Counted from the stretch's first letter, positions 12,998 to 16,428 are shown. The stretch is 46,394 nucleotides of DNA from an uncultured Dehalococcoidales bacterium (GCA_964545945.1 CAZJID010000004.1:1-46394), one strand, 5' to 3'. Numbers and translations: made by a program. Notes: generated from the sequence alone by a model not told the origin.

Positions 12998-13587
12998 TTT
13001 TAACAATAGGTCACTCTACCCGGACGATGGAGGATTTTCTGGGACTATTGCAAGCAAACGAGATAGCCACAGTGGCAGACGTAAGGACCATACCTCGCTC
13101 GCGTCACAATCCTCAATTTGATGCAAGGACTCTGCCCGGTGCTTTGAATACAGCAGGTATAAAATACATTCATATGGCTGGGCTGGGTGGATTGCGCCAA
13201 TCCCGTGCTAATTCATTGAATACGGGTTGGAGGAACGCCAGTTTTCGAGGATTCGCTGATTACATGCAGACCGCTGAATTCGGTCAGAGCCTGCAATGTT
13301 TAATGAATATAATCCTAAAAGAACAAGTTGTGCTTATGTGTGCCGAAAAGCTTCCATGGCGCTGTCACCGATCTCTTATTGCCGACGCATTGCTGGTCAG
13401 GGGATTTAAAGTTGAGCATATAATCGATGCAAACGTACATTACTCGCATAACATTACTTCTTTTGCCAGTGTCTCGGGAACGATTGTAACTTATCCATCT
13501 GTCGTCAACGACAATATTTCAGGTGTACATATAGATACAAATGATAAAAAGGGATACGACTCTGGCCGTAATATCAAGGCAGCGTAA
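12973..13587 (+). CDS. DUF488 family protein
   Basis: 204 aa. The N-terminus [41 protein letters not shown] and the later CAEKLPWRCHRSLIAD are characteristic of DUF488. The start overlaps the mfd 3' end by 25 nt. Confidence 0.7.
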   Translation: MQSANGVLVLTIGHSTRTMEDFLGLLQANEIATVADVRTIPRSRHNPQFDARTLPGALNTAGIKYIHMAGLGGLRQSRANSLNTGWRNASFRGFADYMQTAEFGQSLQCLMNIILKEQVVLMCAEKLPWRCHRSLIADALLVRGFKVEHIIDANVHYSHNITSFASVSGTIVTYPSVVNDNISGVHIDTNDKKGYDSGRNIKAA

Positions 13588-13597
13588 TCTGATTACA

Positions 13598-13855
13598 CTA
13601 AACTTCTATGCCGTAATCGTGCAAACAGTCGATGAGGTCCTGAACGGTAACGATTTTCTCGATGTCTTCATCTGATATTTCCAGTTTACGTTTTGGCGTG
13701 CTGAATTCCTGCTCTAATGTCGTGATAAGCTCGGCCAGGTCGGAGGCATCAATGTTTAAGTCGTCCACAAAAGATGCAGAAGGGACTATTAGCTCCTCGT
13801 CAACACCTAGTTCATCTGCAATCATTTTCTTAAGTTTTTCAGAGATATTTGTCAT
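13598..13855 (-). CDS. Acyl carrier protein-like protein with a non-canonical Ser motif
   Basis: 85 aa and acidic, with ACP-like helix II context (FVDDLNIDASDLAELITTLEQEF). The canonical DSL is replaced by D-A-S-D-L. Confidence 0.7.
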   Translation of the reverse strand: MTNISEKLKKMIADELGVDEELIVPSASFVDDLNIDASDLAELITTLEQEFSTPKRKLEISDEDIEKIVTVQDLIDCLHDYGIEV

Positions 13856-13872: not shown

Positions 13873-14325
13873 CTAAACTGGCTCAGATTTTTTAATTACT
13901 GTGTGTTGTTTTGTCTGGTCTACACAAGTGGTAGCTACTGAACCCAGAACACCGTTTACAAATTTTTGCGAAGTATGGCTTCCAAAACTCTTGGCCAGTT
14001 CGACGGCTTCGTTAATAACTGCTTTCATTGGAACTCTATTATCGAATAAAATCTCAAAAATGGCAAGACGTAAAATATTTCTATCTATTGGCGCAATTTG
14101 CTCTATAGGAAAGGTCGGAGCGAACCTCCGAATAACATTATCGATATTGTTTTTGTTTTGCAGAAAGCCAACCACCAGGCTTTTAGCGAAATCGGCCGCC
14201 TCGTCAGGCAGGGGTTTCTCTCTCAGCAAACGGGCTATTATCTTATCCGGTTGATGGGCCGAACAATCAAGCTCGTAAAGTACCTTTAAAGCAACAATTC
14301 TGGCTTTTCGCCTTACTCCAACCAT
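13873..14325 (-). CDS. nusB: Transcription antitermination factor NusB
   Basis: MVGVRRKARIVALKVLYELD and the following helical protein match the NusB N-terminus. The track ORF extends to a TTG at 14361, but the ATG at 14325 fits the family better. Confidence 0.85.
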   Translation of the reverse strand: MVGVRRKARIVALKVLYELDCSAHQPDKIIARLLREKPLPDEAADFAKSLVVGFLQNKNNIDNVIRRFAPTFPIEQIAPIDRNILRLAIFEILFDNRVPMKAVINEAVELAKSFGSHTSQKFVNGVLGSVATTCVDQTKQHTVIKKSEPV

Positions 14326-14525
14326 GTCGAAATACTTATTACTAAAATACGGATCCAGCAACTCCGGCGACTGAATGAGAACAGCCGCCTGTTAATCAAA
14401 TAATAACCGACTTGTCTTAGCGCTGCAAACAGTAATAAATGTTGAACACGCTACTATTCAGTATCCTGGTCAAAGGTAATTATCGGCCGGTTAAACGCGG
14501 TCATCCGTGGATGGGTGTATTGAGC

Positions 14526-15470
14526 TTATCCCCTGCGCCATTTTGTTATTTCACTCACCGTTTGAGCGTTGCTGATATTAAACGCCTGTGCTCCGGGGCT
14601 GATGCGTTTGATTAGTTTGGTCAGCATCTCACCCGGCCCCATTTCGAAGAAAGTAGTTACGCCTCGAGCAATCATATTTTCCACAGCTTGTTGCCATTGA
14701 ACAGGACGTACAATCTGGCTAACCAGTTCTTCTTTTATCGCTTCCAGGTCGGTAAGAGGCTGGGCGGTAACATTAGCCACAACCGGCACTGCCGGTTTAT
14801 TAAACGTAAATTCCGAAATAGCGTTTCTGAGCCTTTCTATGGCCGGCTCCATTAATATGGAATTGAAAGGACCGTTGACTCTTAGCGGTACAATACGGCG
14901 GGCGCCTTTTATCTGAGCTAACCTTTTAGCTTTAGTCAGGTTTTCTTGAGTACCGCTCAGTGTAACCTGGTCTGGAGCATCGATGTAAGCTATCTCTACT
15001 TGCGTTGAAAAACAGATATTTTTGAAGACTTCTATATCCAGACCGATCATAGATACCATGCCGCCACCCGTACGCTGCCCGGCCTCATTCATTAAGCGAC
15101 CTCTCTCGCGTATCAACCTTGAGGCGTCAGCCAGACTAAGTACACCGGCAGCCACCAAAGCTGCGTAGGTGCCTACGTCGTGTCCGGCAACGAACATGGG
15201 CTCAGGGATACCGTTGTTACTGACCTCCTGGGCTGCTCTAAGACAAGCGACGCTCGTAGCCAGAAGTGCCGGCTGCACATTGGTTGTCTGCTTCAGATCA
15301 TCCTGGGGACCTTCGAAGCATAATCGAGATAGGGAGAAGCCTAGATTTTTGTCAACTTCATCAAAAACTTCACGGGCGGAAGTGTAGTGCACATAAAGGT
15401 CTAAGCCCATGCCTACGGAATGTGATTCCTGCCCCGGAAAAACATACGCGACTTTTATTGCTTCTGCCAT
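14526..15470 (-). CDS. Malonyl-CoA:ACP transacylase (FabD) homologue with a substituted catalytic dyad
   Basis: 314 aa, colinear with FabD (VFPGQ, QPALLATSV, RERGRLM, MIGLD, PVQW, GPG). GHSLGE is replaced by GHDVGT, and the SH of the VPSH motif is replaced by FN. Confidence 0.8.
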   Translation of the reverse strand: MAEAIKVAYVFPGQESHSVGMGLDLYVHYTSAREVFDEVDKNLGFSLSRLCFEGPQDDLKQTTNVQPALLATSVACLRAAQEVSNNGIPEPMFVAGHDVGTYAALVAAGVLSLADASRLIRERGRLMNEAGQRTGGGMVSMIGLDIEVFKNICFSTQVEIAYIDAPDQVTLSGTQENLTKAKRLAQIKGARRIVPLRVNGPFNSILMEPAIERLRNAISEFTFNKPAVPVVANVTAQPLTDLEAIKEELVSQIVRPVQWQQAVENMIARGVTTFFEMGPGEMLTKLIKRISPGAQAFNISNAQTVSEITKWRRG

Positions 15471-15570: not shown

Positions 15571-15774
15571 TTACGGCTTGCCGGGTGTTTTCTTCGAGGT
15601 TTTAATCTCAATTACTTCCCTGCCTGCGTAGGTGCCGCAGGTTGGGCAGGCATGATGAGGTAACTTGGGACTATGGCACTGAGGGCAGTCCACCAGCTTT
15701 GGTACGCTCAGAGCCAGGTGGCTCCTTCTTTTTCCTTGCCTCGCCTTGGCATATTTTCTTTTTGGTAAAGCCAT
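15571..15774 (-). CDS. rpmF: 50S ribosomal protein L32
   Basis: 67 aa, MALPKRKYAKARQGKRRSH, with a CPQC...CPTC zinc ribbon. Confidence 0.9.
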   Translation of the reverse strand: MALPKRKYAKARQGKRRSHLALSVPKLVDCPQCHSPKLPHHACPTCGTYAGREVIEIKTSKKTPGKP

Positions 15775-15782
15775 TTAGCTTT

Positions 15783-16283
15783 TTATCTCCTTCCTCGGAC
15801 TAACTTGGACCATCTTGGATCCACGGCATTTGACGGGCATTGGCAGCGGCTCTTATTAAGGTCTTTGCCGCAAGTTGGGCAAATGCCAGCGCAATCCAGG
15901 CGGCATAACGGCTTAGCAGGAACTGTAAGCCATACATACTGGCGAATCGCTTCGCTCAGGTCGATTGTATGGGTCTCATCAATGATAAGACTATTGTATC
16001 GGTCGGCCGGACATAAACCTTCCGATGAAACCGGGAGAGCTTCTTCTTCAAAGTTGAAGTTTACCTCACAGTCAATAGGTTTCAAGCATCGGCTGCATAT
16101 AACCTTTACGCAGGCATTCATCTTACCTTTGACCAAAATACCACGATTGGTGTGTATTAAAACCGCATTACCCTTGATAAGGTTTATATCATCTTCACCC
16201 ACCTGCTCTTTTATTTGGTAGCTGCGGCTTGAACCGGCGGGTTCCTTAAGTAACTGGGCAACGTTAAAGCGCATGTTTTCCAT
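15783..16283 (-). CDS. yceD: YceD/DUF177 family protein (ribosome-maturation associated)
   Basis: It sits immediately upstream of rpmF, as in the conserved yceD-rpmF pair, and has the C-terminal CxxxCxGxCxxCG motif (CRLDCAGICPTCG). The start is uncertain, with candidate ATGs at 16274, 16283 and 16289; the track ORF extends to 16328. Confidence 0.75.
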   Translation of the reverse strand: MENMRFNVAQLLKEPAGSSRSYQIKEQVGEDDINLIKGNAVLIHTNRGILVKGKMNACVKVICSRCLKPIDCEVNFNFEEEALPVSSEGLCPADRYNSLIIDETHTIDLSEAIRQYVWLTVPAKPLCRLDCAGICPTCGKDLNKSRCQCPSNAVDPRWSKLVRGRR

Positions 16284-16428
16284 AGACATTGTGATGTTAA
16301 TTATAAGTTGAGATATATTCCAAGTCAAGATAACTCATGGTGCCTGAATATCTCGTTCTAGCTATATGAGGATGGGTGAAATGCTTTGTTTGATAGGGTA
16401 TAATGGCTAATCGTGGGGTATCTACAAG

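Follow-up and report, generated by a model that had tools for sequence, protein, structure and literature searches.

A putative FabD pseudoenzyme and a serine-less acyl carrier protein retained together in Dehalococcoidales

In an uncultured Dehalococcoidales bacterium (GCA_964545945.1), the gene at the position of the housekeeping fabD encodes a full-length FabD in which both residues of the catalytic dyad have been replaced. Two genes further downstream lies an acyl carrier protein in which the phosphopantetheine serine has been replaced as well. We call these proteins FabDx and ACPx. Judged from their sequences, they are a FabD-derived pseudoenzyme and an AcpP-derived pseudo-carrier, and related species retain both of them intact, including species whose genomes appear to have no type II fatty acid synthesis (FAS II) at all. 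We consider it fairly likely (a probability of roughly 0.6) that this non-catalytic FabD/apo-ACP pair is kept for a role independent of fatty acid synthesis. As textbooks describe them, FabD and ACP serve bacterial fatty acid synthesis and nothing else; both are drug targets. Positions below are counted from the first letter of the window, by which we mean the whole 46,394-nucleotide stretch of DNA that was analyzed (CAZJID010000004.1:1-46394).

The fabD locus and its missing catalytic residues

FabDx and ACPx are encoded on the minus strand of the window, in a gene cluster with the following features.

16300-16328, minus strand: sigma-70-like promoter TTGACT-17-TATAAT with 11/12 matches, just upstream of the likely yceD start; consensus match only
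15783-16328, minus strand: yceD (DUF177, large ribosomal RNA subunit accumulation protein family; PF02620, E 1.1e-25), the first gene of the cluster
15571-15774, minus strand: rpmF (ribosomal protein L32; PF01783, E 1.6e-23)
14526-15470, minus strand: FabDx, 314 aa, dead orthologue of the housekeeping FabD, predicted to be catalytically inactive
13873-14361, minus strand: nusB (transcription antitermination factor; PF01029, E 6.4e-34), between FabDx and ACPx
13598-13855, minus strand: ACPx, 85 aa (PF00550, 39.4 bits), two genes downstream of FabDx, after nusB
13555-13570, minus strand: terminator-like hairpin with a T-rich tail, 28 nt past the ACPx stop; consensus match only

A strong Shine-Dalgarno sequence (AAGGAGG) is found directly 5′ of the FabDx ATG. 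Together with the promoter-like site and the hairpin it fits a five-gene operon, as consensus matches only. Promoter-like sites are not above chance in the region (7 found, 6.0 expected), and terminator-like sites number 6, with 3.4 expected. The listed yceD ORF begins at a TTG (16328) and so overlaps the promoter-like site (16328-16300); initiation at one of the ATG codons at 16289, 16283 and 16274 is likelier and would leave either a very short leader or none. Many members of the family (e.g. L023:5066-6202), as well as other families, carry a 378-aa radical-SAM gene between fabD and nusB. The only named match of this gene is a weak one, to AmmeMemoRadiSam and glycyl-radical-activase models. 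The gene is missing from the window, with no detectable remnant in the 164-bp gap between FabDx and nusB (14362-14525).

FabDx matches the PF00698 acyltransferase domain in a profile search (E 6.8e-35) and scores 292.1 bits over its full length against the TIGR00128 fabD equivalog, above the curated cut-off of 260.9. An earlier note, made from the window alone, had described the protein as colinear with E. coli FabD and the ORF as intact within a yceD-rpmF neighborhood. Both statements are borne out: the 314-aa ORF has profile-matched yceD and rpmF genes beside it, and a phmmer alignment of E. coli FabD (1mla) to FabDx (E 6.4e-61) is collinear across the whole protein and contains no gaps close to the motifs. 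Misalignment of the motifs is excluded by these gap-free alignments, and no Ser or His moves into the catalytic columns.

The nucleophile motif GHSLGE reads GHDVGT in FabDx, with Asp98 (GAC, 15177-15179) at the position of E. coli Ser92. The VPSH/AFHS motif reads GPFN (GPFNS), with Asn203 (AAT, 14862-14864) at E. coli His201. The loop motif GQGSQ reads GQESH, with Glu15 (GAA, 15426-15428) at E. coli Gly12 and, in the phmmer alignment, His17 at E. coli Gln14. Lys285 (14616-14618) is another altered position. The codons at the altered positions were confirmed in the window sequence, and the replacements given in the earlier note for the three motifs agree with ours in every detail. That note also had the Arg of RERGRLM and the Gln of the N-terminal loop as retained, and they align as Arg123 with the malonyl-carboxylate Arg117 of E. 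coli and as Gln14 with the oxyanion Gln11. His97, Gln252, Lys288 and a tail reading W311-R312-x-G314 are retained as well. An AF2 model of FabDx has the FabD fold with moderate confidence (pLDDT 74, pTM 0.70) and is weakest in the mutated loop, where residues 15-29 are disordered (pLDDT < 50). FabDx is predicted to be incapable of the Ser-His ping-pong reaction and to have no malonyl transfer activity.

ACPx matches solved ACPs (E 3e-15) and has the four-helix ACP sequence pattern. When it is aligned to E. coli and other ACPs, its DSL motif reads D36-A37-S38-D39, placing Ala37 (GCC, 13745-13747) at the position of E. coli Ser36. A protein with this motif would be unable to carry phosphopantetheine. 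The window’s genome has two AcpS genes, both in other modules. A 5-residue insert after the EEF motif of ACPx is a class-specific feature.

Residues of the FabD-AcpP interface, taken from bioRxiv 10.1101/2020.05.15.098798, were compared in both partners. The docking residues K189, R190 and K286 (E. coli numbering) are retained on FabDx, and the acidic residues D35, D38 and E41 are retained on ACPx. At the interface position of E. coli G283, Gly is present in 25/29 live FabDs and Lys or Arg in 44/44 dead ones.

Retention across the class, with and without fatty acid synthesis

ACPx-type proteins occur in 191/201 genomes across the class Dehalococcoidia. The ACP at 27 sampled class-wide loci has a canonical DLNADSLD-type motif and the same 5-residue insert; it lies directly 3′ of nusB at 24/27 of them, and a canonical FabD is found upstream wherever the flank is long enough. 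The entire yceD-rpmF-fabD-nusB-acpP order recurs in four further families, whose Ser and His are intact. This class-wide synteny, the insert and the FabD tree described below establish FabDx and ACPx as orthologues of the housekeeping FabD and AcpP rather than extra paralogues. Two other assignments were rejected on this basis: FabDx as an extra, specialized paralogue, since it is orthologous to the class-wide housekeeping fabD and another FabD copy in the same genome belongs to a different clade (type C, below), and ACPx as a specialized second ACP, since it is the class’s housekeeping AcpP with the same insert. The insert in AcpP, and the presence of the antitermination gene nusB inside the fab operon, form a class-level signature in most sampled genomes (loci L114-L144). 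A check of the five lowest-scoring single FabDs in the class for independent deaths in other families found every one of them canonical.

Within the window’s family we surveyed 61 species genomes, comparing 55 rpmF-linked loci and 18 second clusters. An rpmF-linked FabD is present in 59/61 genomes, and none of the full-length family matches has internal stops. Synteny with yceD holds in all loci examined, and the order yceD-rpmF-fabD-nusB-ACP holds in all 25 + 55 family loci. The layouts are as follows.

Layout A: yceD-rpmF-acpP2-fabF-acpS-fabK-FabD-(rSAM)-nusB-ACPx, with mfd convergent
Layout B: layout A minus acpP2-fabF-acpS-fabK
Layout C: acpP2-fabF-acpS-fabK-FabD-ech-plsX-fabF, elsewhere in the genome

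All FabDs in layout A (10/10) and layout C (19/19) are canonical, and the ACPx of layout A keeps its Ser in 9/10 cases. FabD is dead in 44/45 cases of layout B, and wherever ACPx could be read at these dead-pair loci (42/42) the phosphopantetheine Ser is lost, the column holding Pro, Ala or Gly. Genome G220 is transitional, having layout B and the Gly-to-Glu change of the loop alone.

The dead pair is not confined to genomes that make fatty acids by another route. Across the 61 genomes fabF is undetectable in 31 and AcpS in 30. A second, canonical-type FabD is present in 17/44 dead-pair genomes, and fabF is also present in 17, exactly those that carry the layout C cluster. The other 27 have neither fabF nor a type C or canonical FabD; 11 of these are at least 95% complete, and AcpS is absent from 25 of the 27. 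ACPx is the sole PP-binding domain in four genomes (G078, G233, G013 and G097), which also have no AcpS, and the first of these belongs to the same genus as the window and is 99% complete. About half of the family’s genomes, several of them 96-99% complete, have no detectable fabF, AcpS or canonical FabD, and are apparently those of bacteria without FAS II. We had also considered that such genomes might have no carboxylase at all, and hence no malonyl-CoA. This was not upheld, as acyl-CoA carboxyltransferases are present in them, and malonyl-CoA or a similar thioester may exist there.

The window’s own genome has a separate, canonical FAS II. The earlier note had suggested looking for a second canonical fabD, and one is present on contig 23 of the same assembly (GQGSQ, GHSLGE and GAFHS; 319 bits), 56% identical to FabDx in a gap-free alignment and lying within an acpS-fabK-fabD-ech-plsX-fabF cluster. 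In the window’s genus the type C FabD (L110, which is the contig 23 copy G000:C23, and L093, L094, L101 and L104) bears a conserved, basic-rich C-terminal extension of ~25 residues ending in ...KSSQ, which was not seen in other FabDs. The type C FabD of G219 (C9:13058-13963) has an in-frame TAG.

Outside the family survey, a search of a large protein collection returned 120 homologues of FabDx, at 67-100% identity and almost all 314 aa long, from Dehalococcoidia or Chloroflexota MAGs. Of these, 114 carry Asp or Gly at the nucleophile column and six do not. At the His column Asn or Tyr is usual and His rare, and the Arg of RERGRLM is kept in 120/120, with the exact motif in 112. Asp or Gly also occupies the nucleophile column of the dead FabDs in the 44 species genomes of the window’s family. 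The earlier note had left room for an assembly error or a recent pseudogene; both are excluded, the changes being common to the 114 homologues and the 44 genomes. One 78%-identical homologue, P0079, carries the NCBI label 'Candidatus Bathyarchaeia archaeon' MAG, and its source is probably a mis-binned contig, because all other members are from Dehalococcoidia. Databases annotate these proteins as 'ACP S-malonyltransferase'.

The 44 dead copies have Gly at the nucleophile column in 25 cases, and their His column holds Tyr (19), Asn (12), His (12) or Ser (1). The window’s subclade uniformly pairs Asp98 with Asn203. As Gly cannot act as a nucleophile and the His column varies too, the clade has no conserved replacement dyad. 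Glu or Asp is found at E. coli G12, beside the oxyanion Gln, in every dead copy. The columns with at least 90% conservation in live FabDs that are relaxed in dead ones (E. coli G12, Q14, S92, L93, N160, N162, Q166 and H201) are concentrated at known catalytic and substrate-contact positions, and 73 columns are invariant in both groups. The pocket residues E. coli Q11, Q63, H91, R117, F200 and Q250 are retained in 43-44 of the 44 dead copies (R117 in 44/44, Q11 in 43/44). All rpmF-linked FabDs, live or dead, share an unvarying C-terminal W-R-[KR]-G tail that type C lacks; being common to live and dead copies, it is a lineage-specific feature older than the catalytic loss.

In a maximum-likelihood FabD tree rooted on the type C copies, the rpmF-linked FabDs form one clade (support 99). 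The 44 dead copies lie on one side of a branch with an SH-aLRT of 84, a value at which a single origin is neither supported decisively nor rejected. They split into two subclades, one in which all have Gly and one in which most have Asp and the basal members have Gly. The codons can be connected by single-base steps: Ser AGC/AGT to Gly GGN to Asp GAC/GAT at the nucleophile column, His CAY to Tyr TAY to Asn AAT at the His column, and Gly GGA to Glu GAA in the loop. Catalytic loss probably occurred once, and at most twice, so very few independent events underlie the correlations that link FabD state, ACP state and gene loss.

Selection on the two proteins remains strong after these losses. Pairwise dN/dS (NG86) is 0.04-0.07 for dead FabD (0.06 in the Asp subclade, 0.04 in the Gly subclade), compared to 0.04-0.15 for live FabD, and is 0.09-0.13 for ACPx at dead-pair loci. 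These values rule out drift, and also the mere upkeep of an open frame within an operon. Lost residues, an intact ORF and purifying selection across species together mark FabDx as a pseudoenzyme on comparative grounds. The family survey also shows FabDx and ACPx to be selected independently of FAS II.

Genes for other acyltransferases vary among these genomes. G078, which has no holo-ACP, retains one PlsX, one PlsC-type acyltransferase and five PlsY-like ORFs. The genomes of the Gly subclade have no PlsX or PlsC match and 6-7 PlsY paralogues each. The window’s genome (1.96 Mb) has four plsX paralogues (C6:25866-26843, C23:21128-22108, C44:14713-15699 and C3:33927-34910). Two of these have ACP neighbors, one at C44:15761-15964, with an AcpS at C44:16022-16336, and one at C3:33659-33853, accompanied by a fabF-like gene at C3:31613-32821; the arrangement suggests several small plsX-ACP modules.

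Possible roles of the pair

A plausible history would run as follows. The family ancestor may have gained a second ACP-fabF-acpS-fabK module, which would have made the old ACP dispensable for fatty acid synthesis, and one clade would then have deleted that module from the locus. FabD would have lost its nucleophile stepwise (Ser AGC to Gly GGC to Asp GAC) along with its general base (His to Tyr to Asn), Glu or Asp would have arisen in its oxyanion loop, and the ACP would have lost its phosphopantetheine Ser. Both proteins would have stayed intact under strong purifying selection, even in genomes without FAS II and AcpS. We infer that the two proteins pair physically, and that the retained basic-patch/helix II interface holds the dead FabD on apo-ACP. 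The second, FAS-independent function may already have been held by the live proteins.

Our leading guess for this function is ribosome biogenesis or rRNA transcription, because the pair shares an operon with yceD, rpmF and nusB, and because there are mitochondrial precedents for MCAT and ACP on assembling ribosomes. The linkage of yceD-rpmF with fab genes is ancient and older than the catalytic loss, so it says little about a new role. A basic charge shift, which would suggest RNA binding, was not found in the dead FabDs (pI ~5.8, versus 5.9-6.1 for live copies), and this argues against an RNA-binding or ribosomal role. A more specific proposal is that FabD and AcpP of Dehalococcoidia have an ancestral FAS-independent role, possibly in ribosome biogenesis or rRNA transcription, that was exposed by the loss of FAS II. 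The dead FabD and apo-ACP would then be locked together into a structural module, the bacterial equivalent of what MCAT and ACP do on assembling mitoribosomes. We offer this proposal tentatively and regard it, taken as a whole, as doubtful.

The main rival is ligand sensing, because the pocket is preserved and carboxyltransferases are present in FAS-less genomes. FabDx would bind malonyl-CoA, malonate or another carboxylate in its Arg/Gln/His/Phe pocket without forming an acyl-enzyme, and would signal metabolic state, possibly via ACPx. The near-complete retention of the pocket, in which only the nucleophile and the general base have been given up, could mean that a ligand is still bound, and the carboxyltransferases could supply malonyl-CoA or a like thioester. 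However, folding alone may be the reason why buried pocket residues are conserved, and FabDx has no output domain. Columns that contact the CoA/pantetheine arm are relaxed (E. coli N160, N162 and Q166, and R287 in the Gly subclade). In addition, the acidic residue at G12 in all dead copies, or the Asp at S92 in half of them, could itself fill the Arg site. We think a sensor unlikely.

The earlier note had held that the protein should either be inactive or use different chemistry. The expectation of inactivity is strengthened by the lack of a conserved dyad in the clade, by the Ser-less ACP and by carriers that have no AcpS, FabF or canonical FabD, and the same evidence disfavors different chemistry. 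An enzyme with an Asp nucleophile, acting for example as a hydrolase or decarboxylase, would account for the conserved ORF, for the retained Arg and oxyanion Gln, and for the uniform Asp98/Asn203 of the window’s subclade. But Asp at the nucleophile column is derived from the Gly that more than half of the dead copies still have, nowhere across the clade is a replacement catalytic residue conserved (the His column itself varies among Asn, Tyr, His and Ser), the protein that would naturally accept the acyl group lacks its Ser, and a PPTase is missing from many of these genomes. We consider new chemistry very improbable. Less probable still is that both genes are relics drifting toward pseudogenes and kept only because they lie between the essential rpmF and nusB. 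The neighboring FAS genes have indeed been deleted from the locus and the catalytic residues are gone, but dN/dS values of 0.04-0.13 indicate selection on the amino acid sequence that goes beyond an open frame. Full-length copies (~314 aa and ~85 aa) remain intact across a clade that has diverged to ~60% identity, 73 FabD columns are invariant, and the Shine-Dalgarno sequence is strong.

A non-catalytic role for the pair, our preferred reading, would make this clade a natural separation-of-function experiment. What has disappeared is catalysis, the attachment site for the prosthetic group, the PPTase and the remainder of FAS II, yet the proteins are constrained like live enzymes. The pair thus points to a moonlighting role of bacterial FabD and ACP that is normally hidden behind their essential role in fatty acid synthesis, and the clade is natural material for finding it. 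More immediately, the 'ACP S-malonyltransferase' labels inflate the predicted capacity of these uncultured organisms for fatty acid synthesis.

Comparison with known systems

Our literature search found no paper on bacteria with a dead FabD or a Ser-less housekeeping ACP, nor on Dehalococcoidia without FAS. The closest relative of FabDx is bacterial FabD itself (TIGR00128; E. coli PDB 1MLA, 2G2Z and 6U0J), with which it is collinear, and it occupies the same slot in yceD-rpmF-fabD-nusB-acpP as live Dehalococcoidia FabD. It differs in the changes of Ser92 to Asp (Gly in sister lineages), His201 to Asn (or Tyr, His or Ser), Gly12 to Glu, Gln14 to His and Gly283 to Lys/Arg, and the dead form persists in genomes that have no FAS II.

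For ACPx, the nearest precedent is the mitochondrial ACP (mACP) of P. falciparum, which has Phe at the Ser position and was retained after the loss of FASII and the PPTase (PMC8547962). There it plays an essential structural part alongside Isd11-Nfs1, and its LYR-protein partner is known (PMC8547962). Outside Apicomplexa and Vitrella, the authors of that study detected no ACP without the Ser (PMC8547962), and ACPx is the first bacterial parallel to mACP that our literature search turned up. In both proteins the Ser was lost alongside FASII and the PPTase, and the acidic helix II residues were kept. Plasmodium mACP is eukaryotic and organellar, whereas ACPx comes from bacteria, shows Pro, Ala or Gly in place of the Ser across its clade, and is co-retained with a dead FabD. 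A further case is apicoplast ACP, which stabilizes pyruvate kinase II independently of FASII (PMC13574338). Here too an ACP is essential beyond fatty acid synthesis, through binding and stabilizing another protein. However, apicoplast ACP still needs 4′-phosphopantetheine and a holo-ACP synthase, and ACPx is predicted to be without that group.

For FabDx, the corresponding precedent is human MCAT, a mitoribosomal small-subunit assembly factor that binds rRNA h31 and blocks h42 docking (PMC9892005; PDB 8CSP-8CSS). MCAT keeps its catalytic residues and its role in fatty acid synthesis, whereas FabDx, as known from its sequence, has neither dyad residue nor a basic charge shift. The two proteins share the FabD fold, and the second, non-catalytic structural role of MCAT shows that this fold can moonlight in ribosome biogenesis.
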